Shown: positions 12,875-52,588, numbered from the stretch's first letter. The stretch: DNA of 64,000 nt from an uncultured Candidatus Saccharibacteria bacterium (GCA_964584265.1 CAZOZI010000002.1:66340-130339); one strand, 5' to 3'. Numbers and translations are program-made. The notes: generated from the sequence alone by a model not told the origin.

Positions 12875-13034
12875 TCCTTCATATCACACCGGCCTGTTTC
12901 TAGCAGAGCCAGAACTCTGCCGGTGTTCTTGGCACTCTGCTATGTCAGAGACTGCGGTACTCATTCACCGTACCTATTTGTACGATTCATTCTGTTCCTC
13001 GCCTCTTCCTTGCATTGTGCACAAGTATGAAGAA
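12875..13034 (-). repeat. Family A structured intergenic element, copy 1 (sense on the minus strand), directly upstream of metG
   Basis: 160 nt. P1 TTCTTCATA/TATGAAGGA, P2 AGAGGC/GTCTCT, P3 CGTAC/GTACG, P4 ACACCGGC/GCCGGTGT. Shares junction blocks with the five other copies. Confidence 0.75.
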
Positions 13035-13060
13035 CCGATGTACTGGTCTATTGTATCAGT

Positions 13061-13582
13061 TTATAGCAGTGATACTTGCTGGTTGTCTGACTTTTCTGGC
13101 GTTGAATTAACGCCCGAATTAGGTATAGAAATGTTAAGCTTATCAGCTAGCCTGTCAATAAATACCATTTGTGCCTTCAATAGTTTTGTTTTGGCAGTGG
13201 CCAAATCAAACCATTCAGCTCGATCGTTTTCTAAAAACTCCTGTGTTTTGCCAGACCGAGGTGGCCACTCCATGGTAAAAGTTGATTCAAACTTAAGATG
13301 TTCTAAATGTACATCGCCTTGAACCGCCCAAATGTAATTGGTTTTACTACTACTTTTGGCTGTACCCAGATTAAGAAGTTTACCTGTAGGTGGTCTTATG
13401 CCTAATTCTTCTTCAAATTCTCGCTTAGCTGCAGCTAGATGGTCTTCGTCATTATTATGCTCGCCTTTTGGGATGGACCATACATCTTTTTTTTCCCAAA
13501 ATGGTCCAGCTAGATGGACCAGCAAAACCTCAATGCTGTTACCTCTTTTTCTATAAACCAATATCCCGGCGCTTTGTTTCAT
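13061..13582 (-). CDS. Nudix hydrolase
   Basis: 173 aa with Nudix box GEHNNDEDHLAAAKREFEEELGI. Confidence 0.85.
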   Translation of the reverse strand: MKQSAGILVYRKRGNSIEVLLVHLAGPFWEKKDVWSIPKGEHNNDEDHLAAAKREFEEELGIRPPTGKLLNLGTAKSSSKTNYIWAVQGDVHLEHLKFESTFTMEWPPRSGKTQEFLENDRAEWFDLATAKTKLLKAQMVFIDRLADKLNISIPNSGVNSTPEKSDNQQVSLL

Positions 13583-13610
13583 AAGATTTAAGCTATCCCT
13601 TTTACAATAA

Positions 13611-13687
13611 TGGTGGGCTCTACAGGGCTCGAACCTGTGACCTCAGCAATGTGAATGCTGCGCTCTAGCCAACTGAGCTAAGAACCC
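13611..13687 (-). tRNA. tRNA-Val (anticodon CAC), CCA encoded
   Basis: Hand-folded cloverleaf from GGGTTCTTAGCTCAGTTGGCTAGAGCGCAGCATTCACATTGCTGAGGTCACAGGTTCGAGCCCTGTAGAGCCCACCA. The anticodon loop is TTCACAT and the T-loop is TTCGAGC. Confidence 0.93.
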
Positions 13688-13781
13688 AATGTAGCTCGAT
13701 TATACCTCAAGCACAGCCTGGACTTGACGCTAAAGTTGGTTGCTGTCAAGATAAACATAAGCAATTAAGAAAGGTCAAATA

Positions 13782-14024
13782 ATGCCTCCACAAAATCAGA
13801 CGTTAAATCCTCAGCCACCAAACTCGCCGACACCGGCTGACAACCAGCCAATGACACCAGGTCCAACGCAGACACCTCAACAGCCTAACGTACCTACGCC
13901 GCCGACTGGTCCAGTCGTTCCTGAACAAGGCGGTAAGAAAAGTAAACGACTTTTGCTATGGATTGCAACGATAGTTATCGTGCTCGCAGGAGCAGCAGCT
14001 TATTGGTTTTTGGTAAAGTCTTAA
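13782..14024 (+). CDS. Hypothetical proline-rich protein with a C-terminal TM anchor
   Basis: 80-aa ORF with an ATG start, a P/Q/T-rich N-terminus and a hydrophobic C-terminal helix. Confidence 0.45.
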   Translation: MPPQNQTLNPQPPNSPTPADNQPMTPGPTQTPQQPNVPTPPTGPVVPEQGGKKSKRLLLWIATIVIVLAGAAAYWFLVKS

Positions 14025-14088
14025 ATCTCAAACAAATCCTCGACGCGAACGCCAGTTAGTCAATAAATTCGGCGAATCATATTGATAA

Positions 14089-14242
14089 CTGATCTGCTTG
14101 AGTGCAGTGCAAGGAGAATTTGAGGAGCAAAGTGAGCTGTATTGAAATACAGTGAGCGCGCGCCGGAAAATTCGACACAGCAATGTGCCAAGAGCCGGCA
14201 GAGTTGCCAGCTCTGCCGGCAATCAGGACGGCGACAGATTAG
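14089..14242 (+). repeat. Family A structured intergenic element, copy 2
   Basis: 154 nt. P1 CTGATCTG/CAGATTAG, P2 GAATTT/AAATTC, P3 CTGTAT/ATACAG, P4 GCCGGC(AGAG)/(CTCT)GCCGGC. Lies between the convergent 80-aa ORF and the trehalase gene. Confidence 0.75.
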
Positions 14243-15496
14243 CTAATCAATAAATTCTTTGCAGAATCGCTCAAAAACAGCATTCGTCCAGCCAAAGCCG
14301 GTCTGCGAAGGATAAAGCCCTTTAGCCGGCGGATCTAGCGGATTCACCACATTGTATTTTTCCAAAAAAACACCGTGGACTTTAAACCAATCCAGGTTGG
14401 TGTGGAGCCACTTTTCGGCAATACGCTTTGCGTCATGATTGTAGCCATAGCGCTGTAGTCCCTTAACTACCAAAAAATGCAGCGGCGCCCAGCCATTTGG
14501 GTAGGCCCACTGGGTCGGCACGGCGCCGGGTACAAATTTACTGAACACTGGCGTATCGGTCGTAGCCAGACCACCTTTGTTTTCAAAGCGTTTCAGCATT
14601 TTGACCATCTGGGCGGCTTGATTACTGTCTACCATACCGGCCCACATTGGATAAAACCCGGCTAGAGAGTTCACGCTGCCGCGTTTACGCTTTGCAAAAT
14701 TATAATCATAGTACCAACTGCGCACACTGCTCCACATAAGGTCTTGCATAACCATTTTGCGATGTTCTGCTGCTTCCTTCCATTTCTGGACAGAAGCTTC
14801 ATCTTTAACATGCTCATAGTAGCGGACAAAGTCCGTCTCGTATTTATAAAGTAAGGCATTTAGATCAACTGCTACATAGTCTAAACACTTGCGGTTAAAG
14901 CGTGAGGTCATATCCCAACCGCTTTCCGTTTCGGCCAAATCATGAATATAGTTAAAGTCATAGAAGCGTGACAAGCCCTGGTAAACTTGCCTGGCGTTAG
15001 GTTTATTAACCCCCATCCAAACCGTCTGATATTCGGCTTCTGCTACGCTTATAGCTTCACTAAGCCATTTGTCGTCGAGTTTATAGGCATCGAATACATC
15101 CCATATGAAACTAGTTAGGAATGGTGGCTGTGAATGCCCCGTTAAATAAGTACGCGAAGCATTGGGAATAGTTTTAAAACGCCTAAAAAGCACCAGAAGA
15201 TTTTCAATAATACCTATTATCAACTCCTTGTGTTCCTCGTCGAACATACCCTGGACCATAAAATAGCTATCCCAGTAATAGAGCTCGTTAAAATCAAATT
15301 CATGACCTTCTTCATAAGCGGGTACTAGATAAGGCTTTGGCAAGCCAACTAGCGTTTCATCATCTTTAGGGTGATAACGAATTAATTTTTCCCAATAGCC
15401 ATGAATGTAATCGCGCGCCGGTTGAACATCCCTAGCAGTCAGCTCACCATGCGAACGAAACAGCCCTTTTACAAGTTGAAAGGTTTTATTTAGCAT
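14243..15496 (-). CDS. Trehalase (glycoside hydrolase family 37-like), no signal peptide
   Basis: 417 aa with YYWDSYF and PTQWAYPNGWAP motifs characteristic of GH37 trehalases. Confidence 0.8.
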   Translation of the reverse strand: MLNKTFQLVKGLFRSHGELTARDVQPARDYIHGYWEKLIRYHPKDDETLVGLPKPYLVPAYEEGHEFDFNELYYWDSYFMVQGMFDEEHKELIIGIIENLLVLFRRFKTIPNASRTYLTGHSQPPFLTSFIWDVFDAYKLDDKWLSEAISVAEAEYQTVWMGVNKPNARQVYQGLSRFYDFNYIHDLAETESGWDMTSRFNRKCLDYVAVDLNALLYKYETDFVRYYEHVKDEASVQKWKEAAEHRKMVMQDLMWSSVRSWYYDYNFAKRKRGSVNSLAGFYPMWAGMVDSNQAAQMVKMLKRFENKGGLATTDTPVFSKFVPGAVPTQWAYPNGWAPLHFLVVKGLQRYGYNHDAKRIAEKWLHTNLDWFKVHGVFLEKYNVVNPLDPPAKGLYPSQTGFGWTNAVFERFCKEFID

Positions 15497-15578
15497 CTCT
15501 TCTCAGCCTAGGTCATCATAAGCTAGCGGTCAACCCACAAAGATTTGAAGCTGAATATACTATTATTCCTGGACTTAA

Positions 15579-15911
15579 CTACAGGCTAGGTGGTTGATCT
15601 TCTAAAACCGGGGCGCCGGCATAAAGTGCTCGATAACTTGCTTCAGCATCTGGGCTTAGCCTGTGAAAAACTAAATCACTTATGTTTTTTACATGATTGG
15701 GGGGTACTGGTAATTCACCGAGTTTCATATCACCCGTAACATCAGAGACTAGCCTAGCCCCCCGTTGTTCTAAAACTGGACGCCAACTACTGTTCGTAGC
15801 CGCAATTGGATCTCTGACCTGGTCTCCACTGCTCGACCCCGCTTCGATCGGGGGGGCAAATCTACCAACAATCTCGCCAAATGTAGCCATTTTTTTATCC
15901 TTCACGACCAT
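15579..15911 (-). CDS. Hypothetical protein
   Basis: 110-aa ORF with no motif. An alternative start exists at M8. Confidence 0.4.
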   Translation of the reverse strand: MVVKDKKMATFGEIVGRFAPPIEAGSSSGDQVRDPIAATNSSWRPVLEQRGARLVSDVTGDMKLGELPVPPNHVKNISDLVFHRLSPDAEASYRALYAGAPVLEDQPPSL

Positions 15912-15980
15912 TTTCCACCCACATCACACAAATTACAATTATTTATGCACATTTACAACAAAATATATCGTCTATAGTAT

Positions 15981-16406
15981 TTACTGCACTACTATTGTGC
16001 CAGTATCGCTCGGGTTGAGATGGTTGTGGTAACCAAATGTACCGGTTTTGGTCACTGTAAATGTAACAGTTTGGCCAGAGCTAACAGTTCCGACATTCAG
16101 GTCTAGGTCACTGGTATGTGCCGGGTGTGGATCAGAATCAAGTTGCATTGTACTTGATGAATCGTTTTTAATCGCAACCGTATCGCCAGATTTTACAGTT
16201 ACAGTACTGGGGCTAAAGCCATTATTGGTATACGTAATCGTGGCTGCTGCTGTCTGGTTACTATTTGTGTTGGGAGTTGAGTTTGAAGTTGCAGATGGTG
16301 TGCTTGTTGAAGATTTATTATCGGACTTGTTTGAAAGCATGATTGCACCACCAATACCCAAAACAGCTAAAACGATAACTATAATAATCACTACTGTCTT
16401 ATTCAC
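15981..16406 (-). CDS. Secreted or anchored cupredoxin-like domain protein
   Basis: 141 aa with a GTG start 7 nt after AAGGAG. It has an N-terminal TM/signal, an S/T-rich linker and a C-terminal beta domain (TVTVKSGDTVAIKN...GTFGYHNHLNP). Confidence 0.55.
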   Translation of the reverse strand: MNKTVVIIIVIVLAVLGIGGAIMLSNKSDNKSSTSTPSATSNSTPNTNSNQTAAATITYTNNGFSPSTVTVKSGDTVAIKNDSSSTMQLDSDPHPAHTSDLDLNVGTVSSGQTVTFTVTKTGTFGYHNHLNPSDTGTIVVQ

Positions 16407-16443
16407 GTCTTTGCTCCTTAATTACTTTACAATTCTACACTGA

Positions 16444-16558
16444 ATCAAGACCAAACAAAAAAGACCTTACCCTCATATTTGAGGGAATAAGAAGATGAAG
16501 ATATTTACTTTGGGATGATTACTTAGAGTTCAACAGGGAGAAAGAACGGCGAGTAAAG
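16444..16558 (-). repeat. Family B intergenic module, copy a (short form), containing the typA terminator
   Basis: Aligns with 22113-22290 and 24703-24880. Starts immediately after the typA stop. Confidence 0.65.
16457..16491 (-). terminator. Intrinsic terminator downstream of typA
   Basis: Minus-strand stem CTTA(TT)CCCTCA / TGAGGGTAAG followed by GTCTTTTTTG. Confidence 0.6.
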
Positions 16559-18385
16559 TTATTTATTGTGGTGTTTGCGTTTTACCGGGTTAAGTTCTTG
16601 CTTGCGCAGCCTTAATGATTTAGGCGTAACTTCCAATAATTCATCGTCCTCGATAAAGTCTATGCACTCTTCTAGACTGAAGATAGTTGGTGGTGTTAAT
16701 TGGACTACGCCGTCGCTGGATGAGCTGCGCATATTGGTCAAATGCTTGGCTTTGCAAACATTCATTTCCATGTCATCCTGACGTTTGTTGATGCCAACGA
16801 TTTGGCCAGCGTAAACATTCTCGCCGGGGCCAATCAGAGTTTCACCTCGCTCTTCAACCATTTGCAGAGCGTAAGGCGTCGTCACACCGGTTTCAAAAGC
16901 TATGATGACCCCATTGCGAAGCTGTTGGAGCACAGCACCAAGCGGTTCGTAACCCATCATCAGTGAGTTCATGATAACGGTGCCTTTAGTGTTGGTCATT
17001 AAGATGTTGCGCAAACCAAGTAAAGCCCTGGTTGGCATTTTATAAACTAGTTTTGTCATTCCTTTAGAATTGGCAAATTGCTCTTTTAAAACGGCCCGCC
17101 GGGTGCCGAGCTCCATCTGGATTGCACCGACATGTTCGGCAGGCACTTCTATCATAAGTTCCTCAATGGGTTCTAATTTCTGGCCTTTTTCTTCTTTCAA
17201 AACGACCTGGGGACGTCCGACTTCAAACTCATAACCTTCGCGGCGCATAGTTTCGATTAACACGCTCAGATGCAGTTCGCCCCGACCAGACACCACAAAG
17301 CCAATGTCATTATTTTCGACGCGCAAACCGACATTGGATTCCAATTCCTTATGCAAGCGTTCTCCAATTTGGCGGCTGGTAGTGAATTCGCCCTCTTTGC
17401 CTTTGAAAGGAGAAGTATTGGGGCCAAGATAAATCTTAAGGGTAGGTGCCTCGACCTCTAGCACTGGTAATGCTTCTGGGTTGTTGGCGTCAGCAATGGT
17501 CTCGCCGATCTGGGCATCACTAACGCCCGTCAACTGAATAATGTCACCAGCTACACCCTCTGCTACTTCAAACTTGGAGGTTCCCTGGCTCATGAATATG
17601 CTGTCAATCTTAGTGTTTGCACGGCTGCCGTCTTTTTTGCATAGAACGGCAGTATCGCCTGGTTTAACATGGCCGCGGGAAACCCTGCCAACCGCATATT
17701 TACCCTTGAAACTATCCCAAGCCAAAGCCGTTACCAACATCTGGAAGGGCTTGTCGCGCTGCACTTTAGGCGCTGGAATGTGGTCTTTAATAGCCTCAAA
17801 TATTACGCTCAAATCAGCAACGTCTGTCTCTGGATTAGACGGTACGGCCTGCCAGGCTTTGCCGGCGCGGCCAATCGAGTAATAAGTTGGGTAATGCAGT
17901 TGGTCTTCATGTACGGCTAGTTCTAGAAACAGGTCAGCAATTTCGTCTTCAACTTCATTAATCCTAGAGGCCGGTTTGTCAATTTTGTTGATTATAACAA
18001 TCGGTTTAAGCTCATAGGCCAAGGCTTTGCTCAGCACAAACTTGGTTTGGGGCATCGGGCCTTCCTGGGCGTCAACTATCAAAATACAGCCATCGGCCAT
18101 GTTCAAAGTCCGTTCGACTTCACCTGAGAAGTCGGCGTGACCCGGAGTATCAATAATGTTGATGCGAAAATCGCCGTACTGGGCAGCTGTAACTTTGGCG
18201 GTGATAGTAATGCCGCGCTCGCGCTCCTGGGCACCACTGTCCATAATCAGTTCCTGGCTCATTTCGGCCTGGTTGTCGCGAAAAGTTTTAGACTGCTTTA
18301 ATAGCCCGTCAACCAAGGTTGTCTTACCATGATCGACGTGGGCGATTATGGCGATATTTCTAATCTTGTTAGGGTCTTGTTTCAT
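16559..18385 (-). CDS. typA: Translational GTPase TypA/BipA
   Basis: 608 aa with G1 motif AHVDHGKTT and an EF-G-like domain order. Confidence 0.95.
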   Translation of the reverse strand: MKQDPNKIRNIAIIAHVDHGKTTLVDGLLKQSKTFRDNQAEMSQELIMDSGAQERERGITITAKVTAAQYGDFRINIIDTPGHADFSGEVERTLNMADGCILIVDAQEGPMPQTKFVLSKALAYELKPIVIINKIDKPASRINEVEDEIADLFLELAVHEDQLHYPTYYSIGRAGKAWQAVPSNPETDVADLSVIFEAIKDHIPAPKVQRDKPFQMLVTALAWDSFKGKYAVGRVSRGHVKPGDTAVLCKKDGSRANTKIDSIFMSQGTSKFEVAEGVAGDIIQLTGVSDAQIGETIADANNPEALPVLEVEAPTLKIYLGPNTSPFKGKEGEFTTSRQIGERLHKELESNVGLRVENNDIGFVVSGRGELHLSVLIETMRREGYEFEVGRPQVVLKEEKGQKLEPIEELMIEVPAEHVGAIQMELGTRRAVLKEQFANSKGMTKLVYKMPTRALLGLRNILMTNTKGTVIMNSLMMGYEPLGAVLQQLRNGVIIAFETGVTTPYALQMVEERGETLIGPGENVYAGQIVGINKRQDDMEMNVCKAKHLTNMRSSSSDGVVQLTPPTIFSLEECIDFIEDDELLEVTPKSLRLRKQELNPVKRKHHNK

Positions 18386-18388
18386 TGG

Positions 18389-20553: not shown

Positions 20554-20649
20554 TTTCTGATCTTTTTGATTTTAGTTCTTCTTATGGTTCAAACAACTGG
20601 ATAGATAGAACAAATTATCTAGCCTGGGAGATATATACAAAGTAATTGT

Positions 20650-22290: not shown

Positions 22291-22310
22291 ATTTACAGTA
22301 ACGGATTAAA

Positions 22311-25251: not shown

Positions 25252-25662
25252 ATGGTGGAGCTGCCGGGTACTACCCCCGGGTCCGCTAGTTTATCTGGTT
25301 AGTCTTCTACAGGCATAGGTCATTTGATTACTGCAAGACATAGAAATGACCAAAAAGTCTTACAGGTTGATTCAATTGTCTTAACCAAATGTCGAATCAA
25401 ACATTTGATGCATCCAGATTATATGACACGCACTGGCAATATCTGGCGTCAGGCTAGGCGCGGTTAAAGCTAATTAAGCCTTAACAAAAGATGGAGCTAG
25501 CGGAGAGATAGAAGCAACAAAGTTGTCTACCTTACCTTGAATGCTAGCTACAAATTCGCGAATTCGTGATTTTGCACTTATTCGTGGTTGCCATATGACG
25601 CTTAGCAAGCGACCTGCTGATCTAACCGATAAAGTCCAACGTCAAGCTTAAAATTCAGCCCC
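25252..25662 (-). ncRNA. ssrA: tmRNA (ssrA)
   Basis: The 5' end is GGGGCTGAATTTTAAGCTTGACG and the 3' end is GGACCCGGGGGTAGTACCCGGCAGCTCCACCA. The acceptor stem GGGGCTG/CAGCTCC includes the G3-U70 alanine identity pair. An internal tag-like frame runs from GCA after AATAAGT to TAA. Confidence 0.85.
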
Positions 25663-36614: not shown

Positions 36615-36875
36615 AGAATGACCGCGCTAGTGTACCATAACAGAGGTGAAAAAGAAATCCCCGCTACGTTTTTGCGGGGATTTATTAGGGGGCCCCACGA
36701 CGAGAGGATTCGTCGTGGGGTAAAGCGAAAGAATTGTTGGAGGCTGAATGTAAAACGACTTCCGTCGTTTAACGGAAGCCGAAATACAATTTTGAGCTGC
36801 GGTCAGTCTTTGCTCTTTTGAACTAGATTTATACTAGCACAATTTTGTTTTTTTGGCTAGTTAGTTTTCCACAAG

Positions 36876-40447: not shown

Positions 40448-40611
40448 GAATCCATTGCATATCTTACGTTCGTTAAGCGAAGGCTTGGTTGATGAGTGCA
40501 AGGTGCTCGTTATTGTGAGGAAGCGTATCCGTAAGATACGTTGACGAGCAAAACGAGTGCATTGTGCCATCGAGCAAGATTGAGGCTGAACGGAAGGTAT
40601 ACGATGGGTTC
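40448..40611 (+). repeat. Family A structured intergenic element, copy 3 (antisense to the flanking minus-strand genes)
   Basis: 164 nt. P1 GAATCCATTGCATATC/GGTATACGATGGGTTC (one mismatch, three G-U), P2 TGCTCGT/ACGAGCA, P3 CGTATC/GATACG, P4 CCATCG/CGATGG. Confidence 0.65.
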
Positions 40612-44154: not shown

Positions 44155-44523
44155 ATGACGAAAATTGCAATTATTGAAGATGACCTGGCTATCAGCCAGA
44201 TGTACCGCATCAAGTTTGAGGCGGAGGGCTTTGAAGTTGAGACTGCCGAGAATGGCAAACTAGGCTTAGCACTATGTGAAAAGCTAAAACCAGATATTAT
44301 CCTACTCGATCTAATGATGCCCGAAATGCGTGGTGATGAAATGCTGGCTGCCCTCCGAAAGACTGACTGGGGCAAGCATATTAAGGTGGTCATTCTAACC
44401 AATATGGGCGAGCAAGAAGTACCTGAGGATGTTAAGAAGCTTGGAGTAGCCGCTGTTATTCTTAAGGCTGATATGACCCCGCGCCAAGTGGCTGAACTCG
44501 TTAAGACTACGCTTAAATCTTAA
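44155..44523 (+). CDS. Single-domain response regulator (CheY-like receiver)
   Basis: I prefer ATG at 44155 (MTKIAIIEDD...). It has the acidic pocket DD, the phospho-acceptor context ILLDLMMP, and a conserved K (ILKAD). The track start at 44020 overlaps the divergent transporter gene. Confidence 0.85.
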   Translation: MTKIAIIEDDLAISQMYRIKFEAEGFEVETAENGKLGLALCEKLKPDIILLDLMMPEMRGDEMLAALRKTDWGKHIKVVILTNMGEQEVPEDVKKLGVAAVILKADMTPRQVAELVKTTLKS

Positions 44524-44548
44524 GCTTGCTACAATATAATTAATGGCA

Positions 44549-44713
44549 AAAACTCCGCATTTGAGTGCAATGCAAGGAAGCGTCGAGAAACGTAGTGAGG
44601 TGTACATAAGGTACATTGAACAAGTATCGGAGACGCTGACACCGCAATACACCAAAAGCCTCAGTAGAGTGGCTAGCTTTGCTAGACAGCAGGCTGAGGC
44701 GGTGCGAGGTTTT
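44549..44713 (+). repeat. Family A structured intergenic element, copy 4, directly upstream of the murD-like gene
   Basis: 165 nt. P1 AAAACTCCGCA/TGCGAGGTTTT, P2 AGCGTC/GACGCT, P3 GTGTAC/GTACAT, P4 GCCTCAG/CTGAGGC. Confidence 0.75.
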
Positions 44714-44715
44714 GC

Positions 44716-46029
44716 ATGAGGATTGCAATTCTTGGTTATGGTGCTCAAGGTAAAGCCGCTTATGAATATTGGAATAAACTTGGTAGCGAACTAACTATCT
44801 GTGACAGCAATGCAGCACTCGCTACACCAAACGGGGTTCAAACCAAGCTCGGCCAAGATTATCTAAAAGACCTGGCGAAATTTGATCTGCTAGTCCGCAC
44901 GCCTGCCCTACATCCCCGTGACATAGTTGCAGCAAATCCTGACCAACCAAACATTCTTGATAAAGTCACAACTGTAACTAATGAATTTTTCAAGGTTTGC
45001 CCAACCAAAAATATCATTGGCGTTACTGGCACCAAGGGCAAAGGCACCACCAGCACGCTGATTGCCAAAATGCTAGAAGCCAGTGGTAAAAAGGTGCATT
45101 TGGGCGGCAATATAGGCACCCCACCACTAGATATGCTCAAAGCAGGAATCCAGCCAAATGATTGGTTAGTATTGGAGCTAGCCAACTTCCAGTTGATTGA
45201 CCTCAAAGCTTCCCCAGCTATAGCTGTCTGCCTTATGGTAGTACCGGAACATATGGATTGGCACAGTGATATGAACGACTATATCGCTGCTAAGCAACAG
45301 CTTTTTGCTCACCAATCATCAAGCAATGCAGCAATTTATTATGGACTCAATCCAACTTCGCAACATATTGCCAGTGTAAGCCCCGGCCAAAAAATCCCTT
45401 ACATGAAACATCCTGGAGCTGATGTAATAGAAAATGCCGTGGTTATCGACGGCCAAACCATCTGCAAAGTTGATAAGCTTAAATTGCTCGGCAAGCACAA
45501 CTGGCAAAATGTCTGTGCTGCCGTTACTACTGTCTGGCAGATAGATAAAAACGTTGAGGCTATACGTTCAGTCATCACCACATTCACGGGTCTTGAACAC
45601 CGCTTAGAATTAGTTCGTGAACTCAATGGTGTAACTTATTACAATGACTCATTCGCTTCTGTCCCAGATGCCACAATAGCCGCCATTAAAGCCATAGATC
45701 AACCAAAGGTGGTGATTGTCGGGGGATTTGAAAGAGGCTTAGATTTAACTGAACTCACCCAGGCTTTTGTGGCAAATCAAAGCACCATAAGTAAAGTTCT
45801 TTGTATCGGCGTAACCGGTTCTAAAGTTGCTGAATCTCTTAAGAAAGCTGGTTTCACCAACTATGAAGTCGTTGCAGAAAAAAGTATGAATAACATCGTC
45901 AAAAAGACACAGTCTACGGCTCAGTCTGGGGATGCGGTGCTTCTTTCACCTGGCTTTGCCAGTTTTGATATGTTCAAAAATTTTGAGGAACGTGGCCTGC
46001 AATTTAAAGAGGCGGTCAATGCACTATGA
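44716..46029 (+). CDS. murD: Mur ligase, MurD-like (UDP-MurNAc-L-Ala--glutamate ligase; possibly the L-Glu-adding MurD2 type)
   Basis: 437 aa with P-loop GVTGTKGKGTT and N-terminal ILGYGAQGKAAYEYW. It is 4-nt ATGA-coupled to the next gene. Confidence 0.75.
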   Translation: MRIAILGYGAQGKAAYEYWNKLGSELTICDSNAALATPNGVQTKLGQDYLKDLAKFDLLVRTPALHPRDIVAANPDQPNILDKVTTVTNEFFKVCPTKNIIGVTGTKGKGTTSTLIAKMLEASGKKVHLGGNIGTPPLDMLKAGIQPNDWLVLELANFQLIDLKASPAIAVCLMVVPEHMDWHSDMNDYIAAKQQLFAHQSSSNAAIYYGLNPTSQHIASVSPGQKIPYMKHPGADVIENAVVIDGQTICKVDKLKLLGKHNWQNVCAAVTTVWQIDKNVEAIRSVITTFTGLEHRLELVRELNGVTYYNDSFASVPDATIAAIKAIDQPKVVIVGGFERGLDLTELTQAFVANQSTISKVLCIGVTGSKVAESLKKAGFTNYEVVAEKSMNNIVKKTQSTAQSGDAVLLSPGFASFDMFKNFEERGLQFKEAVNAL

Positions 46030-47318
46030 GTAAATACAACACTTTTATGTTTAAAGATTATCAATTTGACATAGCCGCTAAAACCCTGCAACTACACTAC
46101 AGTTTTGACGAGCAACTCAACTTTAATGAGATATATAAATTTGATTTTGATTTCGTAGATTACAGCGAACATCAACTCGATATTGCTTTGCAAAGTTTGT
46201 TCTTAATGGCTGGCGTTTCGTATTATAAAACCTATTTGCCTCAGAAAATCGAATTCCAAATGCCCATCAGTCTTGATCAAGCTAGTCTCAACTTCTTTGC
46301 CAAAACCTACCAAAAAGGTCTGGGAGAATTCTTTTATACAAATCACCTTAATCCAAATACGCCTGTTCAGTTTCCGCCAAGTTCTGCTCACGCACAGCCT
46401 ATTGAAGCAGATGATAATAATGGATTATTGATTGGCATTGGGGGAGGTAAAGACTCTTTGTTAAGTGTAGAGCTTCTACGCGACCAGCCCAAAATAGCCA
46501 CCTGGAGCGTGGGACATCGCACACAACTCACACCACTAGTCGAAAAAATAGGTTTGCCACACTACTGGGTAGACCGCACGATTGACCCGAAGTTGCTGGA
46601 GCTGAAAAATAACCCAGATGCCTATAACGGCCATATCCCGATCTCTGCAATTCTGGCTTGCGTAGGTGTAATAGTGACAATCCTGACTGGCTATCGTGAC
46701 GTAGTGGTTTCCAATGAGAGCTCTGCCAGCGAACCAAATCTTATATATCAAGGCATACCGATTAACCACCAGTACTCTAAATCTCTCGAATTTGAGAAGG
46801 ACTTCCAGCAATTCCTAAAGTGTTATTATGGAGAAAGTCTACGTTATTATTCTTTCTTGCGACCATTGAGTGAACTACATATTGCCAAATTATTTGCACG
46901 AGTTGGGTTTGAAAAGTACAAAAGTGTGTTTAGCTCATGTAATCGAGCCTTTACTCAACACAGTGATCATATGTTTTGGTGTGGTGAGTGTCCCAAATGT
47001 GCATTTACTTTCTTAGCCCTAACGCCATTTATTGATCGAGAAAAACTAGAAGCCCTATTTGAGGGCAAAAATCTGCTATTGGATCAAAAGCTAGAGGCAA
47101 CCTATCGCCAGTTATTGGGCATTGAAGGCGACAAACCTTTAGATTGTGTCGGTGAGGTCAAAGAGTCACGTGCCGCGATGAGGCTAGCTCAGAAAATATA
47201 CCCAGAACTATCAAAATATCAATTCGAGATACCCAAAGAATATGACTATCTTGCTCTCTCGTCGCACAGTATGCCTGCAGAGCTTTTTGTAGTTTTTCAA
47301 GCAGCAATCAACTTCTAA
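46026..47318 (+). CDS. PP-loop ATPase-like protein with a CGECPKC motif, coupled to murD (candidate MurL-type epimerase)
   Basis: 430 aa with a GIGGGKDS PP-loop-like motif and FWCGECPKCAF. Start overlaps the murD stop. Confidence 0.4.
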   Translation: MSKYNTFMFKDYQFDIAAKTLQLHYSFDEQLNFNEIYKFDFDFVDYSEHQLDIALQSLFLMAGVSYYKTYLPQKIEFQMPISLDQASLNFFAKTYQKGLGEFFYTNHLNPNTPVQFPPSSAHAQPIEADDNNGLLIGIGGGKDSLLSVELLRDQPKIATWSVGHRTQLTPLVEKIGLPHYWVDRTIDPKLLELKNNPDAYNGHIPISAILACVGVIVTILTGYRDVVVSNESSASEPNLIYQGIPINHQYSKSLEFEKDFQQFLKCYYGESLRYYSFLRPLSELHIAKLFARVGFEKYKSVFSSCNRAFTQHSDHMFWCGECPKCAFTFLALTPFIDREKLEALFEGKNLLLDQKLEATYRQLLGIEGDKPLDCVGEVKESRAAMRLAQKIYPELSKYQFEIPKEYDYLALSSHSMPAELFVVFQAAINF

Positions 47319-47337
47319 GATTGCAAATTTTTATCAA

Positions 47338-48594
47338 TTATTCATTTAACAGCACGGCACGCCTATAAAGTTCATGTTCTGGTGTTATCCGATTAGAAAG
47401 CGGTACTTTAACAATTGACTTTTCAGGTATCGGTAACTCAATAGTTTCACCTGGTAAACCACGATCCGCTATGCTAACTGCTACTCTGGCTTTATCTAAA
47501 ATAGAAGTAATTTGTAGAACACCATTTACTGAGGTGCGTCTATTAGAGACATCCTCCACAATGATGAGCCCGTTGGATGCCTCAACCAATTTTTGATCTT
47601 CTTCACTTCTATACTTGAACGTCTTTACGCCAGGTCCTACTTTTTCTTTTTGTAGATAAACAACGTCCAAACCCATATGCACCCCCAGCAGTAATCCAAG
47701 CTGATTTGCCCCATCTGCTACAGGTACGATTAGATCGGCTTTAAACGGTGCTGCCATCCGCTCAAGTGAGTTTAAGATCAGTTTTAGTACTTTAGGGTGT
47801 CTATAAGCTTCTTCGAAATCCATTTTATTATTAGAAGTCTGGCCTCCCGCAAATGTCCATTCCCCACTACGTTTTATCTTAAAGAAACCGATGTCGAGAA
47901 GGGCCTCAAGTACTCGCTCGGATTCTGCAGGTCTTATGCGATCAAAATCACCAGGTACATTATCGCTTACCCAAAGTTGCCCAGTATCTTCGTCCATTTG
48001 ATAGAGTGAATGGTATTGAATTCCAATTCGTCCGAGGTTAGCTGCGGCTCGACCCTGGCTTCTATCAACTAAGGCAAATGCATCTTTTACTTCTCCGCCA
48101 TTTTGACGCAGCATGTCAGCCATAGCCGCAAAACGCATACCCGAAAAGACGCTCCCAGCCACAACTAAGACATCCTGCCCGTCTACGCTTGGACCATGCA
48201 GCCCATATCCATTTTTAATATCTCTTGGGACTGAAGGATCGTCTTTGTCGAGAACAACCATTGTGTAGGTAGCGCCCTCGAAAGGACTGCCGCGCATAGC
48301 ACCTGCCAATGTCATGGATAACATGGCACCAGCAACGGTGCTAGCAGCAATTCTACTATAGCCCGTCTTGTTGCCTTCACTGAGCCCGTATATAAAAGCC
48401 AGTCTGCCAGCTTCTAGGGCAATGCCTCCCTCGCATATCGCTCTAGATGAATCAAAATTCCAGTTTGAGTACTCGCCTGGTCCATAACTTAAAGGCGTGT
48501 CAAAATGCTCAACTGCTGTATCTTGCAAAGTTTGGCCAAACGCAATTAAAGGATGTATCTCAGAAGCTGAAGGTGTTATAAGGGTTTTTGGCAT
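47338..48594 (-). CDS. Tandem phosphoribosyltransferase-like (OPRT-type) domain protein
   Basis: 418 aa with two PRTase-like loops (VLVVAGSVFSGMR and LIIVEDVSNRRTS). Confidence 0.45.
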   Translation of the reverse strand: MPKTLITPSASEIHPLIAFGQTLQDTAVEHFDTPLSYGPGEYSNWNFDSSRAICEGGIALEAGRLAFIYGLSEGNKTGYSRIAASTVAGAMLSMTLAGAMRGSPFEGATYTMVVLDKDDPSVPRDIKNGYGLHGPSVDGQDVLVVAGSVFSGMRFAAMADMLRQNGGEVKDAFALVDRSQGRAAANLGRIGIQYHSLYQMDEDTGQLWVSDNVPGDFDRIRPAESERVLEALLDIGFFKIKRSGEWTFAGGQTSNNKMDFEEAYRHPKVLKLILNSLERMAAPFKADLIVPVADGANQLGLLLGVHMGLDVVYLQKEKVGPGVKTFKYRSEEDQKLVEASNGLIIVEDVSNRRTSVNGVLQITSILDKARVAVSIADRGLPGETIELPIPEKSIVKVPLSNRITPEHELYRRAVLLNE

Positions 48595-48607
48595 GCGCTC
48601 ACTTCGA

Positions 48608-49420
48608 TTAGCTGTTTTCCACTCCCCTCTTCGCGGCTCTTATAACATTATCAAATAAAGCGCAGACTGTCAGTGGGCCGACACCTCCCCTAGTGGGTGT
48701 TATCGTCAAATCTTCGCGCTCATACACATCTGGCGCTAAATCGCCTACTGTTATGCCTGATTCACTCGCCACCCCAGCATCGACTACTACAGCACCTTGC
48801 GTGATCATATCTGAGTATAAAATAGCAGGGCTGCCTGTGGCAGTGATAATGATATCCGCCTGTTTTGTGTGTACCGACAGATCAGGTATACCTCTTTCTA
48901 CAACCTCAACATTAATACCAGAACTCTTTAGCATACGCTCTAAGGGCGCGCCAACTAGCTTACCACGGCCAATTAGTAGCACTTTTTTCCCAGTTAAATC
49001 AACGTTATATCCAGACAGGAGCCACAGTATAGCCATCGGTGTAGCGGGATCAAACTTAGCGTTTTTGCCCAGAGCATCTACATCTTTTTCAGGTGCAACC
49101 ATGTTAACAATTTCTTCGGTCTGGCTAGTATCTGTTATAGGTAATTGAACAATGATGCCATGGATTTTTTTATCTTGATTAAGTTTTTGCAAAAGTTTTG
49201 CAATTTCCTCTTGTGAAACAAAATGTACATCAACATCAACTAGAATGTCAGCACCATACGCTTTTTTCAGTTTTACATAAGTATTTATAACCGGATCATC
49301 TTTGCATTGAACAATAGCTAGCTTCGGTTCAATATCGTGGGCTTGCCTTAAACCACGGACAGTTTTGGACTGCCGCTCTTTGATAAAATCCGCTAGTTCT
49401 TTACCGTTTAGTAGTCTCAT
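48608..49420 (-). CDS. folD: Bifunctional methylene-THF dehydrogenase / methenyl-THF cyclohydrolase
   Basis: I prefer ATG at 49420 (MRLLNGKELADFIKER...). The track start at 49606 adds 62 non-FolD residues that overlap Family A copy 5. Confidence 0.88.
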   Translation of the reverse strand: MRLLNGKELADFIKERQSKTVRGLRQAHDIEPKLAIVQCKDDPVINTYVKLKKAYGADILVDVDVHFVSQEEIAKLLQKLNQDKKIHGIIVQLPITDTSQTEEIVNMVAPEKDVDALGKNAKFDPATPMAILWLLSGYNVDLTGKKVLLIGRGKLVGAPLERMLKSSGINVEVVERGIPDLSVHTKQADIIITATGSPAILYSDMITQGAVVVDAGVASESGITVGDLAPDVYEREDLTITPTRGGVGPLTVCALFDNVIRAAKRGVENS

Positions 49421-49490
49421 CTGTGCTATTGTAACCCAATATTGCAAAAACAGGGGTAATTTGCTAAAGTTCCCGTAGTTTGACCAAATC

Positions 49491-49656
49491 AGCTTGCTTG
49501 GCTTTAGGCTAGTGCTAGGAAAGCCGCTGTTTGTGAGGTCAGTTGTATATAAATACTGCTGGCCGATCAAATCAGCGAGATTAACACCGCAATAGTCAAA
49601 GAGCACAAACAGAGTTTTGACTCTGTCAAAAGCAGGTTTGTGCGGCCAAGCAAGTT
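49491..49656 (+). repeat. Family A structured intergenic element, copy 5, ending 2 nt before tRNA-Lys
   Basis: 166 nt. P1 AGCTTGCTTGGC/GCCAAGCAAGTT, P2 CGCTG/CAGCG, P3 GTAT/ATAC, P4 GCACAAAC/GTTTGTGC. Confidence 0.7.
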
Positions 49657-49658
49657 GA

Positions 49659-49735
49659 GGGCCAGTAGCTCAGCTGGTTAGAGCACCTGCCTCTTAAGCA
49701 GGGTGTCGAGGGTTCGAGTCCCTCCTGGCCCTCCA
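49659..49735 (+). tRNA. tRNA-Lys (anticodon CUU), CCA encoded
   Basis: Hand-folded from GGGCCAGTAGCTCAGCTGGTTAGAGCACCTGCCTCTTAAGCAGGGTGTCGAGGGTTCGAGTCCCTCCTGGCCCTCCA. Confidence 0.92.
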
Positions 49736-49759
49736 AACCCGCCCATGCTTGCAAAATGA

Positions 49760-50140
49760 ATGACTCAGTATCAAGATAATCGTATGAGTGACGCAGAAAG
49801 TATATTAGAAGGTGACCCAACTGTCGGTCATGATCCGAGTGAACCAGCTGAAGACGCCGTGTTGGCAGCACAGTTACTGAGTGATTTGGCAGCAGTAGGA
49901 ATTAATTTTAGTACAGGCTTCATACCTTACGGTGGTGGCTTTGCCCAGGGATGGGATCGAGTACATAGTCTAAGAGGTCGAGACGGGAATACCTACAATG
50001 TTGAATGGTTTATTCAACAGCTGAGTGCTTCCCATGAACCGAACGGCCGACCAGATTATGTAAAAGTAAGCAGTGTCATCGGAATATGGTCTACGCAGCA
50101 TGCGGTAAGCCAACCCATTCATCCTTCACAAAGTGCTTAG
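49760..50140 (+). CDS. Hypothetical protein
   Basis: 126-aa ORF with an ATG start, followed by a terminator hairpin. Confidence 0.45.
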   Translation: MTQYQDNRMSDAESILEGDPTVGHDPSEPAEDAVLAAQLLSDLAAVGINFSTGFIPYGGGFAQGWDRVHSLRGRDGNTYNVEWFIQQLSASHEPNGRPDYVKVSSVIGIWSTQHAVSQPIHPSQSA

Positions 50141-50209
50141 CTTAGTTCGATTAGCGTTACTGTGGCCGTCCACCACACTTTAATAACAAACTTCATTCGC
50201 CATATTAAA

Positions 50210-50255
50210 AGGCAGCCCGTGTAAGTGTGTCCCAGTCAGGCTGCCTCTTTTAGTT
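50210..50255. terminator. Bidirectional terminator hairpin between convergent genes
   Basis: AGGCAGCC ... GGCTGCCT stem flanked by AAAA on the left and CTTTTAGTTTT on the right. Confidence 0.55.
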
Positions 50256-50275
50256 TTATTTAAATAGTGTGTTAT

Positions 50276-50917
50276 TTATTTACTAAGTTGGCGTCGGCGG
50301 CTGAACAGGTAGTGTCCGATAGCTGACAAACCAGATACCGATAGTGCTGCTGCAGCTACACCTGATGGGCCAGTACTTGTCAATTCAGCAGGGTGAGTGG
50401 TAGAAGCTGGTGTTGCAGTAGGAGTAGTTTTTGGTGTTTTAACTTCGCACTTAAGACCATGCCCACCTACGTAAGCGTTTAACAAACGACCTGGTTCAAA
50501 TGGCAAGTGCCCGTTAGGACCGGTTGGGTTCAAGCCCAAAGCCAGGTCAACTTGGTAGAAACACTTTGGTACATTAACGGTCATTGTGTGCGTACCAGGC
50601 TTAGCATTTTTCAGTTTGGCGTCCGCAAACAACTTCTGATCTTCAAGGGGGTATGGGTTACCATCTTTGTGTGGAATGGTGAAGGCACTAAGCACAAAGT
50701 CCTTACGACAGTTAGAATCGCCAGATACCTTGAAATCTATACTTATAGTATCGCCTTGGGCATTAGTGCCTTTAACGAAACCTTTGCCAAGACCTTCTTC
50801 TGTAAACTTACAAGTTGGCGTATCGCCAGGGTTAGCGAATACCTTCGCTGAAGCGGTCATGCCGGTAGCCAAAGCTACACCTAAAGCGAGACCTATAACT
50901 AAATTACGTATTTTCAT
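50276..50917 (-). CDS. Sortase-anchored surface protein (LTSTG sorting signal), paralog family S
   Basis: 213 aa, highly similar to the N-terminal domain of 37795-38763. The C-terminus is LTSTG, a TM helix, then RRRQLSK. Confidence 0.7.
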   Translation of the reverse strand: MKIRNLVIGLALGVALATGMTASAKVFANPGDTPTCKFTEEGLGKGFVKGTNAQGDTISIDFKVSGDSNCRKDFVLSAFTIPHKDGNPYPLEDQKLFADAKLKNAKPGTHTMTVNVPKCFYQVDLALGLNPTGPNGHLPFEPGRLLNAYVGGHGLKCEVKTPKTTPTATPASTTHPAELTSTGPSGVAAAALSVSGLSAIGHYLFSRRRQLSK

Positions 50918-50961
50918 AAACTTCCTCTCCTTAATGCGCCAGTCCTCACTAGCTTATGAAC

Positions 50962-50990
50962 ATTGTAGAACATAGTTCTAGGATTGTCAA
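50962..50990 (-). promoter_or_regulatory. Near-consensus sigma70-type promoter of 50276-50917
   Basis: On the minus strand: TTGACA, a 17-nt spacer, then TACAAT. Confidence 0.55.
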
Positions 50991-51015
50991 GTATATAATA
51001 TAAAATGCTTGTTTT

Positions 51016-51045
51016 AAAAAGAAAACCCCTTAAATAGGAGTTTTC
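51016..51045 (-). terminator. Intrinsic terminator downstream of 51082-51930
   Basis: Minus-strand stem GAAAACTCC/GGGGTTTTC followed by TTTTT. Confidence 0.55.
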
Positions 51046-51081
51046 TTCGTCTATAGAAAGACTAGTTATTGTTATTATTGC

Positions 51082-51930
51082 TCATGAGCCTATGATTCCT
51101 CCTTTCTCCATGGCATTAATTAGCCGCGTTAACCCTATACCGCCACCTGAGCGGGGGAAGAAGTTAAGCTCCAAAAACTCATGTAATTCTTTTTCAACCC
51201 GTTTTTTACCGAACAGGTCAAACAATTTTTGGGCATACTTACCCTTACTAATGGAGTAAAACCCTTTTGTCATTTCTACCGCGTCGTTACTTCTTTCGGC
51301 ACTCCCAATAGTCTCATGACCGTGCATAATGACGTCTATCTTGTGGGCGTGGCTTTTACCTTTCTTTTTCATGTTCCAAAAAGGCGATGTGTAGACAGGG
51401 AAGTCTTGGCAAAATACGATTGGACCAAAGTCAGCCTGCATACGGCCTTCGTGGGTGTGTGTAAGTTCGCGAGTTTTATAATGACGAGCTAGCACGTCAT
51501 ATTGCTTATAGTGGAAGTCCTTACGGCTACCAAAGCCAAGGTGTTCTAATAGCTCGGTCTCGAACTTTTGTAAGTCCTTAATACTGCCCTTGATCTCGAA
51601 CTCGAACATAGGGAAGATGAGCTTATGGCGGCCAGGTACAGGGTTCTGTTCATTACGGTAGCTAGTACTCACACAGAAAACACCCGGCAACTGTGGACGT
51701 GTAAGCAGTTCATACTCCAACCACATCTGACCGGTTTGCGGTAAAGGCCATAAGTTACCAGCGTAGTTATAGGTAGCTACAGTATCTGGGTCCTCGCAAG
51801 CAGCTAATATGCTTAAGCGATCCTGAGTACTTACCTCTACGAAACCCTTGCTTAAACAAAAGCTACGCAACTTATTGACTACCTTGCTAAAGGCAAGGCT
51901 ATCATCTACTCCTCTATAATTGTTTACCAT
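51082..51930 (-). CDS. Class II aaRS catalytic-core paralog without an anticodon-binding domain (asparagine synthetase A / AsnRS-paralog type)
   Basis: 282 aa with a motif-2-like STSYRNEQNPVPGRH and a motif-3-like GGGIGLTRL. Confidence 0.55.
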   Translation of the reverse strand: MVNNYRGVDDSLAFSKVVNKLRSFCLSKGFVEVSTQDRLSILAACEDPDTVATYNYAGNLWPLPQTGQMWLEYELLTRPQLPGVFCVSTSYRNEQNPVPGRHKLIFPMFEFEIKGSIKDLQKFETELLEHLGFGSRKDFHYKQYDVLARHYKTRELTHTHEGRMQADFGPIVFCQDFPVYTSPFWNMKKKGKSHAHKIDVIMHGHETIGSAERSNDAVEMTKGFYSISKGKYAQKLFDLFGKKRVEKELHEFLELNFFPRSGGGIGLTRLINAMEKGGIIGS

Positions 51931-52172
51931 TTATACCCTCCTTATGTTGATTTACTTGAGCACCCCCGCACGTTGACAGCCCTTTGCCGGTGCGGGGATG
52001 CGCCGAATGCATAAAAAAACAGCCCCGTAGGGCTGTTTTGCTGCAAAGATATGGCCGCGTTTTCATGCTCGGCGATATCTAATTTTATGCATTAGGATAC
52101 AACATAGCATAAGCATATCCAGCCTGCCAAATAGATTTGTAAAAGATTGTTAATTTATATCATAGTTAGCAT

Positions 52173-52209
52173 AAACGGAGACCTCTCATTAGTTTAAAGG
52201 TCTCCGTTT
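52173..52209 (-). terminator. Strong hairpin downstream of the KGG small ORF
   Basis: AAACGGAGACC ... GGTCTCCGTTT, an 11-bp perfect stem. Confidence 0.45.
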
Positions 52210-52243
52210 ATTGTAAGTAGTGTGGCTACTTGGCTATGGATCT

Positions 52244-52348
52244 CTAGGAGTTTCGGCGGCGCGCTCGGCCGCTTGCCCTGCCCCCCATACTCGAAATTTC
52301 GCGTTGACGAGCTTTATCCATTGCCGCAAATCCGCGTTTTTTTGCCAT
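52244..52348 (-). CDS. Small KGG-repeat / general-stress-type protein (34 aa), below the ORF-track size cutoff
   Basis: Manual translation gives MAKKRGFAAMDKARQREISSMGGRASGRARRRNS. GGGAGGG lies 5 nt upstream of the ATG. The GFA.MD...REI...GG pattern is typical of KGG stress-induced proteins. Confidence 0.6.
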   Translation of the reverse strand: MAKKRGFAAMDKARQREISSMGGRASGRARRRNS

Positions 52349-52423
52349 AAAAACCCTCCCTTACATTAGTTAGCCTACCTAGCATAGTTGCTTAATACAC
52401 GGTTCACTATTAGATATTTAACT

Positions 52424-52588
52424 ACAAGTTCGCATCGCATGGGCCTGCTGCCCAGCTGAACTGGCCACTCTGCGCATGCTTTTAGCGTGGTGCGATGTCA
52501 GAAACTCCGCTACTCGTTCACCGTATAATCATACGACTCACTCTGTTGCTCGTTTCTTCCTAGCACCGCATCCAAATGCGAAACTTGT
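52424..52588 (-). repeat. Family A structured intergenic element, copy 6 (sense on the minus strand), between the DHFR-like gene and the KGG ORF
   Basis: 165 nt. P1 ACAAGTTTCGCAT/ATGCGAACTTGT (one bulge), P2 AGAAAC/GTTTCT, P3 CGTAT/ATACG, P4 GCATG/CATGC. Confidence 0.75.

Follow-up and report, generated by a model that had tools for sequence, protein, structure and literature searches.

Family A, an uncatalogued structured RNA with a covarying three-way junction in Saccharibacteria

The Patescibacteria, or candidate phyla radiation (CPR), have tiny genomes and few recognisable regulators, and their RNA biology is barely known. In a 64,000-nucleotide (nt) stretch from one such organism, an uncultured Candidatus Saccharibacteria bacterium (GCA_964584265.1, CAZOZI010000002.1:66340-130339), a first-pass annotation made from the sequence alone had described six copies of an intergenic element, here called Family A, with conserved junctions and freely varying but paired stems. 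The whole of this stretch is referred to as the window; positions are counted from its first letter, and copy counts cover its 64 kb. Five of the six copies (c1, c2, c4, c5 and c6) are members of a real homologous structured RNA family of about 165 nt that was previously uncatalogued. They align end to end, which the sixth copy, c3, does not, and they occur at a density of about one per 13 kb (five in 64 kb).

Family A copies in the window and beyond

The five full members stand clearly apart from the remainder of the window. A covariance model built from them (R1) scores them at 143-182 bits, and the next-ranked match in the window receives 10.8 bits, while a degenerate pattern describing the 3' half of the element matches exactly those five copies, with none expected from 100 shuffles. 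Their minimum free energies range from -60 to -70 kcal/mol (z-scores of -3.5 to -7.3), and the assigned strand is more stable than its complement every time. The earlier suggestion that the element corresponds to no known motif is borne out by Rfam 15, in which no confident match was found: at gathering thresholds, the whole window yields only four to five tRNAs and the transfer-messenger RNA (tmRNA), and at E<=10 (regions 12000-15000 and 44450-44800) the copies are overlain only by a 12-bit chance match to R2_retro_el.

The first copy along the window, c1 (12871-13038, minus strand; 173 bits with R1), is the 5' leader of metG (11418-12869, minus). The 3' arm of its closing helix P1 (TCGGTTCTTCATA/TATGAAGGAGCGA) carries the Shine-Dalgarno (SD) sequence AAGGAG and stops 1 nt short of the ATG. 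About 12 nt upstream of P1 lies a putative extended -10 element, TGATACAAT (13050-13058, minus), read from the sequence and kept in L027 (contigs and genomes of relatives that carry members or orthologous sites are numbered from L002 to L035). Copy c2 (14086-14245, plus; 159 bits) is not a leader; it lies 61 nt past a small proline-rich membrane open reading frame (ORF; 13782-14024, plus) and is convergent with a trehalase gene (14243-15496, minus), the stop codon of which is overlapped by the 3' arm of P1. The best-scoring member, c4 (44549-44713, plus; 182 bits), is the 5' leader of a Mur ligase gene (44716-46029, plus), and a putative extended -10 element, TGCTACAAT (44527-44535, plus), kept in L033, is found 13 nt upstream of its P1. 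The most divergent full member, c5 (49489-49658, plus; 143 bits), sits within the leader of tRNA-Lys (49659-49735, plus), with the last nucleotide of its P1 3' arm at position -1 of the tRNA. The promoter of this unit (49442-49470, plus), composed of TTGCAA, a spacer of 17 nt and TAAAGT with a TGC extension, is nearly identical in a three-way comparison of the window, L033 and L035, despite saturated synonymous sites. Copy c6 (52424-52588, minus; 178 bits) starts 6 nt past the stop codon of the DHFR gene (52594-53082, minus) and lies 76 nt upstream of a gene for a KGG-family peptide (52244-52348, minus), so that its position is either 3' untranslated region (UTR) or intercistronic. As originally described, each copy nearly fills its own intergenic gap, the gaps measuring 191 nt, 192 nt and similar.

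The sixth claimed copy did not hold as a full member. c3 (40448-40611, plus) is a rod-shaped hairpin (-76.9 kcal/mol) that is antisense to both flanking genes and lacks the CUGACAC block and the whole P4/P5 arm of the fold described below. Its score is 8.4 bits with R1; with R2, a covariance model from the 31-member alignment A6, it reaches 11.9 bits (E 0.07). With an arm-only model (R3), c3 obtains 19.3 bits (E 0.014) at 40484-40578 and ranks right below the five members, and in a MAFFT alignment it is 65% identical to the arm consensus, the likeness being confined to the central P1b-P2-P3 arm. A second rod, found in L018 (1240-1450, minus), has the same apex as c3, GUAUCCGUA(A)GAUAC, and the two have a CGTTCGTT block in common. 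On the basis of these two examples, c3 is treated as a related variant, and the two rods may together form a sister family.

Outside the window, 26 further members were found, all in Saccharibacteria metagenome-assembled genomes (MAGs) or metagenome contigs, for a total of 31 in the alignment. Among GTDB species genomes, the 3'-half pattern picked out six loci in Saccharibacteria/Saccharimonadales MAGs and four evident chance matches in other phyla; a metagenome scan supplied 14 additional members, and contigs around MetRS and FolD homologues added orthologous as well as extra copies. Neither pattern scans of IMG/VR viral contigs nor blastn against plasmid and phage collections returned a member. 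Publications on structured or non-coding RNAs in Saccharibacteria and Patescibacteria gave no description of such an element, nor did the remainder of the literature and databases covered, and its distribution so far is restricted to Saccharibacteria.

Fold, covariation and selection in place

The consensus fold is a three-way junction at which the closing helix P1 meets a P4/P5 arm and a long arm interrupted by conserved internal loops. Read from 5' to 3', the locus-specific P1 5' arm is followed by helix P1b (CUUGR, 4-5 variable base pairs and UGC), the internal loop AAGGAA (or AAGGCG), P2, a run of 2-bp helices between conserved purine-rich loops (GAG.. and tandem GA), and P3, in which an invariant GUA/UAC lies beside a variable loop. 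The return strand (..GA..GAG..CG..) leads to P2', (C)UGACAC or GCAACAC, GCA with the return strand of P1b to CCAAG, A(R), P4, CAGAGU, P5 (apex GGC-UCU-GCC), AGCAGG, P4', GYG and, last, the P1 3' arm. In c4, the helices are located at 44549-44561/44701-44713 (P1), 44560-44573/44644-44656 (P1b), 44580-44584/44632-44637 (P2), 44599-44605/44611-44617 (P3), 44658-44665/44693-44700 (P4) and 44670-44677/44681-44688 (P5).

All four helices that the first-pass annotation had listed, P1 to P4, were recovered, and all of them covary, although its account of the remainder required revision. The blocks that it had regarded as unpaired are conserved, but some of them are in fact paired, CUUG with CAAG and UGC with GCA, in helix P1b. 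Its AGAGT block corresponds to an internal loop, AGAG/GCAG, enclosing an additional hairpin, P5, which also covaries. P1 itself is a helix as claimed, but the length given was too short: in most copies it extends over 11-19 bp and reaches the signals of the flanking gene.

Covariation persists when homologs from many genomes are included. In an alignment of 26 members, 93.4% of the paired cells can form a pair, compared with 30-44% (about 35%) in controls with slid partners; double-sided changes occur in 47 of the 57 pairs, all helices covary, and the observed values were equalled in 0 of 500 shuffles. The functional strand is fixed by the excess of G.U over A.C combinations (101 versus 31) on the proposed strand. 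About 60 positions are conserved in >=90% of members. In addition, covariation extends to combinations that are not Watson-Crick, A.G exchanging with C.A at columns 41/117 and G.A with A.G at columns 33/126, which points to specific non-canonical pairs and a specific tertiary fold. The internal loop comes in two subtypes, AAGGAA with CUGACAC and AAGGCG with GCAACAC (columns 41-43 and 114-117 of alignments A4 and A6), which covary as a unit; both are present in one genome (L033). Because the conserved non-helical core is large, a specific partner or catalysis is more plausible than the action of a mere hairpin.

Comparison of orthologous copies shows that the fold is maintained at individual loci. 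At four-fold degenerate sites of adjacent genes, the window is 26-39% identical to L027, L029 and L033, which amounts to saturation, whereas the c4 orthologue in L033 is 86% identical (against 39% at the four-fold sites of the neighbouring gene). The c1 orthologues in L027 and L029 are 80-81% identical, and the c2 orthologue in L029, likewise next to trehalase, is 72% identical. Given that these values lie far above those of saturated four-fold sites, purifying selection is taken to act on each copy at its own locus, even on the non-leader c2. Together with the covariation and the strand bias, this supports the original proposal of a selected RNA fold. Paralogues within the window are 44-69% identical and their termini are not conserved, in agreement with the other part of that proposal, namely that the element is not a recent miniature inverted-repeat transposable element (MITE).

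Presence or absence of a copy nevertheless differs at four orthologous sites, in each case with sharp boundaries. The NUDIX-metG spacer, which holds c1 in the window, is empty and 17 nt long in L032, and the DHFR-KGG spacer, the site of c6, is empty and 76 nt long in L033. The tRNA-Lys leader is empty in L035, and the copies that it holds in the window and in L033 are only 45% identical, with unrelated P1 helices. Between metG and TatD, where the window has a gap of 7 nt, L029 has an extra copy in antisense orientation (11423-11605). Moreover, L030, L031, L032, L034 and L035, at similar evolutionary distance, contain no copy in 12-21 kb each. Such gain and loss between related genomes implies spread by some insertion process over long time scales, and we propose that new copies arise rarely, via insertion. 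In all four comparisons of filled with empty sites, one P1 arm is similar over its outer part to the original flank, and the opposite arm is complementary to that part (12871-12883, 49641-49658 and 52424-52435 in the window; 11430-11450 in L029). This could result from templated or guided insertion, from outward growth of P1 under selection, or from deletions that left one arm.

Three further features of these sites were recorded in the relatives. In L029 (11400-11461), the MetRS frame runs into the extra copy, and the protein ends in ..RKDKDAVTQQPA before the stop codon, compared with ..RKENTPVKK in the window. The element-free metG of L032 looks leaderless, with a -10-like TAAAAT, 9 nt and the ATG at 1699-1718, and no SD sequence. 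The L034 site equivalent to that of c4, between a response regulator gene and the Mur ligase gene (4200-4990), holds a gene for a Y1 (IS200/RAYT-type) transposase of 209 amino acids, flanked by three copies of a 24-nt REP-like hairpin, GTGTGAAAGGATAAACCTCTCACA, which is unrelated to Family A; a separate REP/RAYT-like system thus occupies the same hot spot.

The variable presence raises the question of whether the element is a selfish, non-autonomous mobile element, made of structured RNA or single-stranded DNA (ssDNA) and intron- or MITE-like, the fold of which would serve its own propagation or removal rather than the host. The four polymorphic sites, the two unrelated copies acquired by the tRNA-Lys site in two lineages, the five copies in 64 kb here against zero in comparable stretches of relatives, and the repeated likeness of outer P1 to flank sequence plus its complement, which hints at templated or guided insertion, are all in keeping with this idea, and Patescibacteria are rich in group I introns (PMC13011429). 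However, no near-identical paralogues exist (the maximum being 69%), the termini are not conserved, no direct repeats flank P1 and no target duplication is evident, the filled-versus-empty comparisons suggesting instead that P1 contains flank-derived sequence. No transposase or reverse transcriptase adjoins any copy, the sole Y1 transposase seen, that of L034, having its own REP hairpins, and viral, plasmid and phage collections gave no match. The orthologous copies, c2 among them, are under purifying selection, unlike dead transposon copies. A purely selfish nature is accordingly regarded as unlikely.

Individual classes of mobile or repetitive DNA were also considered. ERIC/IRU sequences, bcr1 of Bacillus cereus, Correia elements of Neisseria and the pneumococcal BOX/RUP repeats have conserved termini or inverted repeats and high inter-copy identity. 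Family A is similar to them in length (~100-160 nt), in having tens of copies, in its intergenic and presumably co-transcribed location, in its stable RNA hairpins and in its variable presence, but its paralogues are only 44-69% identical, its stems are compensated, its loops are conserved and its orthologues are under purifying selection. A MITE or classical repeat is disfavoured since conserved terminal inverted repeats are lacking (the P1 arms are wholly different) and paralogue identity is low, even though presence/absence polymorphism was found. A group I intron does not fit either, as there is no match to RF00028 and all copies are intergenic or in leaders, with none within a gene. For an IS200/IS605 PATE or a REP-RAYT system, the only Y1_Tnp gene seen in the sequences examined, which do not include the rest of the source genome, is that of L034, with its unrelated hairpins. 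An integron attC site, an ssDNA initiation signal or an IS200-type ssDNA element is at odds with orientations that track transcription and not replication, c1 and c2 lying 1 kb apart on opposite strands. A retron msr-msd has a similar closing inverted repeat, but no reverse transcriptase adjoins any copy.

Closing helix P1 and the downstream RNA

The strongest contextual regularity, absent from the first-pass annotation, is that P1 abuts or covers the first functional nucleotide of the downstream RNA. P1 is mostly 11-19 bp long (8 bp at the shortest) and differs in sequence at every locus, only the innermost 3-5 bp being semi-conserved. The first functional nucleotide lies at -8 to +2 from the end of the P1 3' arm for metG (in three genomes), the Mur ligase gene (in two), the genes for a winged helix-turn-helix (wHTH) protein, a HIT protein and a HAD hydrolase, xth, gltX, one pilin gene, tRNA-Lys (with two different copies) and 5S rRNA. 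In four other cases (ruvA, rplJ, a pilin-like gene and prs), the distance is +6 to +12. Depending on the locus, the P1 3' arm includes the SD sequence (AAGGAG in c1, GAGG in c4), the start codon (xth, gltX and pilin) or, in L033, the four initial nucleotides of the tRNA. Thermodynamic prediction assigns the region from -14 to +3 an unpaired probability of 0.09-0.42 in 13 of the 14 leader copies.

The units directly 3' of leader copies, identified by Pfam and by reading of the downstream ORFs, are metG (c1), the Mur ligase gene (c4), tRNA-Lys (c5) and 5S rRNA, together with rplJ, gltX, prs, rnhB, ruvA, xth and the genes for a HIT protein, a HAD hydrolase, a wHTH protein and pilin-like proteins. 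The 23S-5S spacer also holds the element, 5' of 5S rRNA (L002, L005). Not every copy is a leader: c6 comes after the DHFR stop codon, c2 and L006b are flanked by convergent genes, and those in L007, L012 and L029 (11423-11605) are antisense to both neighbours. By tally, tandem gene pairs hold the element in sense in ~14 cases and in antisense in 3.

For c1, c4 and c5, conserved promoter elements are found 12-19 nt upstream of P1, and -10-like boxes precede most copies. Judging from the -10 positions, P1 would begin ~5-12 nt after the start site, and most copies are predicted to sit in sense a few nucleotides past a promoter, that is, at the extreme 5' end of the transcript. A sigma-70 scan of the sequence was uninformative, returning 22 sites versus 16.6 expected and missing the conserved tRNA-Lys promoter. 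No terminator was found after the copies that precede genes. A recognisable SD sequence is lacking in about half of the genes downstream of Family A copies.

The frequent coincidence of the P1 end with the start of the downstream RNA invites comparison with ribozymes. Family A could represent a new self-cleaving or self-processing class, with the core as catalytic centre and a cut near the base of P1 leaving a defined 5' end, be it that of a leaderless mRNA, a mature tRNA or 5S rRNA. Conserved junctions, freely covarying stems, many copies and diverse contexts are typical of small ribozyme classes. The end of P1 often falls at 0 to +2 of the first nucleotide of the downstream RNA, tRNA-Lys and 5S rRNA included, the SD sequence is unrecognisable in about half of the downstream genes, and the empty metG site of L032 has a leaderless appearance. 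The GIR1 lariat-capping ribozyme, with ~190 nt and a three-way junction, sets the 5' end of a downstream mRNA. Family A shares with twister, hatchet, pistol and GIR1 a conserved junction core, variable stems and many genomic contexts; it differs in that no Rfam ribozyme model matches and in that the register between P1 and the start codon is not uniform. The start codon lies 4-8 nt inside P1 for xth, gltX and pilin and 8-12 nt outside it for rplJ, prs and others, so that there is no single register. A uniform cleavage register yielding leaderless mRNAs was thus rejected, as it does not suit xth, gltX, pilin, rplJ and prs. Moreover, copies in 3' UTRs or in antisense orientation would gain nothing by 5'-end formation, and 165 nt is large for a self-cleaver. 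Self-processing is on balance improbable.

Sequestration of initiation signals in P1 is also reminiscent of riboswitches. A sensor of one global small molecule, such as a nucleotide or an alarmone, might gate the translation of a broad housekeeping regulon through P1. The highly conserved junctions of a three-way junction, as in thiamine pyrophosphate (TPP) or purine aptamers, amount to an aptamer-like complex core; the leader position and the SD sequence or start codon in the P1 3' strand fit as well, and many downstream genes relate to nucleic acids, nucleotides or translation (prs, HIT, HAD, xth, rnhB, ruvA, rplJ and those of aminoacyl-tRNA synthetases). In common with TPP/purine-type aptamers that hold the SD sequence in P1, Family A has two arms closed by a P1, nucleotides conserved at the junction, a leader position and a ribosome-binding site in the P1 3' strand, but its P1 is locus-specific and 11-19 bp long, its genes are incoherent, some copies are not leaders, and no aptamer model matches. 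A helix of that length should form with or without a ligand; copies before tRNA and 5S rRNA, in 3' UTRs and in antisense do not make a coherent gene set; no conserved alternative pairing exists; and close relatives do without the element before the same genes. The CAGAG/CUCUG alternative pairing, considered as a switch, was abandoned in that the variants of c6, L006b and L029b break rather than compensate it. We consider such a sensor very unlikely.

A T-box (RF00230) was suggested by metG and gltX. Family A resembles T-boxes in having many diverged copies per genome, in a ~200-nt leader whose stems covary freely between conserved loops and junctions, and in standing ahead of aminoacyl-tRNA synthetase genes, and actinobacterial T-boxes work by SD sequestration. 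It differs in that it also occurs before tRNA, 5S rRNA, pilin and DNA-repair genes and in 3' UTRs. No specifier changes with the gene, CUGACAC/GCAACAC being near-invariant before metG, gltX, rplJ, tRNA-Lys and 5S rRNA. RF00230 gives no match at E<=10, no T-box sequence or antiterminator is present, and copies precede tRNA and 5S rRNA. Because P1 ends 0-2 nt before the start codon, there is also no space for an antiterminator or anti-sequestrator. The length of P1, the lack of coherence among the genes and the presence of copies before tRNA and 5S rRNA all speak against an ordinary metabolite riboswitch or a T-box.

Two further explanations were considered. One holds that the element is a structural stabiliser or insulator, sensing no signal: a nuclease-resistant domain at transcript ends, or an RNase III hairpin like the intercistronic signals of phage T7. 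Placed 5-12 nt from the 5' end, it would protect against 5'-end-dependent decay, and 3' exonucleases would be stopped by copies in 3' UTRs. The putative start sites leave just ~5-12 unpaired nucleotides before P1, and copies occur in 5' and 3' positions and in the rRNA spacer. P1 (8-19 bp) and P1b (~12 bp) could stack on their continuous 5' strand to give 22-30 bp of almost uninterrupted helix, a size suited to RNase III, for which a signal needs about two turns, and the folds are very stable. For RNase III stems in phage T7 and rRNA, for the t-elements of plant mitochondria and for tRNA punctuation, a helix or a tRNA-like shape is sufficient. Family A is like these stems and t-elements in being a structured module between functional RNAs, with a base that marks the end of the mature neighbour, but its large non-helical core is conserved, and nothing in the element resembles a T-loop or a tRNA. 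As a stabiliser or RNase III site requires only a strong helix, the ~60 invariant loop and junction nucleotides, the isosteric non-canonical covariation and the conservation of the P5 apex would go unexplained, and the probability of this explanation is judged to be low. The other holds that the copies are independently transcribed trans-acting small RNAs, or components of ribonucleoproteins, residing in intergenic gaps. Copies that are antisense or lie between convergent genes are still conserved, and -10-like boxes precede most copies, but no terminator follows the gene-preceding ones, the variable parts pair with each other and leave no free guide, and P1 uses coding or tRNA nucleotides of its neighbour, which ties each element to its own locus. 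This explanation has very little probability in our view.

A proposed cis-acting module at transcript starts

Tentatively, with a probability of about 35%, we favour the reading that Family A is, in a Saccharimonadales clade, a transcribed cis-acting module, the core of which is recognised by a common factor and by which the 5' end of the downstream RNA is held or processed. The conserved three-way-junction core would be the docking surface for a single common partner, most likely a protein (a processing endonuclease, a helicase or an RNA-binding regulator) and less likely a small ligand. The locus-specific P1 would pair the extreme 5' end of the transcript with a stretch reaching the SD sequence or start codon, the tRNA +1 or the 5S +1. 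The downstream RNA would thereby have its 5' end or its translation-initiation region kept in duplex, presumably with initiation or processing blocked. Opening of P1 in a factor-dependent manner, or cleavage at P1, would then free the downstream RNA. Action in cis on the transcript is suggested by the sense bias, the promoter proximity and the coincidence of P1 with the start, and c1, c2 and c4 are under selection in place.

Several observations weigh against a cis-acting module of this kind. In a compact genome, any intergenic insert comes to lie near a start codon, so that the proximity of P1 to the start could be partly geometric. Several conserved copies are not leaders (c2, L006b, c6 and those in L007, L012 and at L029:11423-11605), which is the chief weakness of every cis model; as such copies exist, and c2 is even conserved, the function cannot be control of the downstream start only. 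The downstream genes share no theme, and an ordinary ligand-gated switch would require a less stable helix than a P1 of 11-19 bp. In addition, the module is dispensable for the same genes, since L030, L031, L032, L034 and L035 have no copy.

A bolder version can be envisaged in which the family is the RNA part of a new system of 5'-end punctuation in Saccharibacteria: a ribozyme, or the substrate of a dedicated nuclease, would be cut at the base of P1 to release leaderless mRNAs and the mature 5' ends of tRNA and 5S rRNA, and would spread by flank-templated insertion that builds P1 from the target sequence. It is speculative, and the odds are well against it.

In any case, a large, information-rich fold at the 5' ends of mRNAs, in a tRNA precursor and in the 23S-5S spacer fits no standard class, whether riboswitch, T-box, ribosomal-protein leader, ribozyme or MITE. 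If 5' ends are indeed gated or processed by the cis-acting module favoured here, it would amount to a new level of global post-transcriptional regulation in an ultrasmall episymbiont; if the element is catalytic, it would be a new ribozyme class. Spread with a closing helix apparently built from flank sequence would likewise be new.

The window holds other structured RNAs as well. The tmRNA gene lies at 25253-25662 (minus; RF00023, 64.9 bits) and confirms that the sequence is bacterial. At 59539-59613 (minus), beside tRNA-Arg, Rfam reports a tRNA at threshold (29.5 bits, gathering 29) for which ARAGORN makes no call, and the adjacent 230 nt (59210-59440) fold to -89 kcal/mol on the minus strand; the region 59210-59613 might represent an unusual tRNA, perhaps with an intron, or a structured element of another kind. 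Finally, two long gaps, at 36615-36875 and 51931-52423, are packed with GC-rich hairpins, unrelated to Family A by covariance model, several of which are terminator-like, for example AAACGGAGACC...GGTCTCCGTTT after the gene for the KGG peptide.

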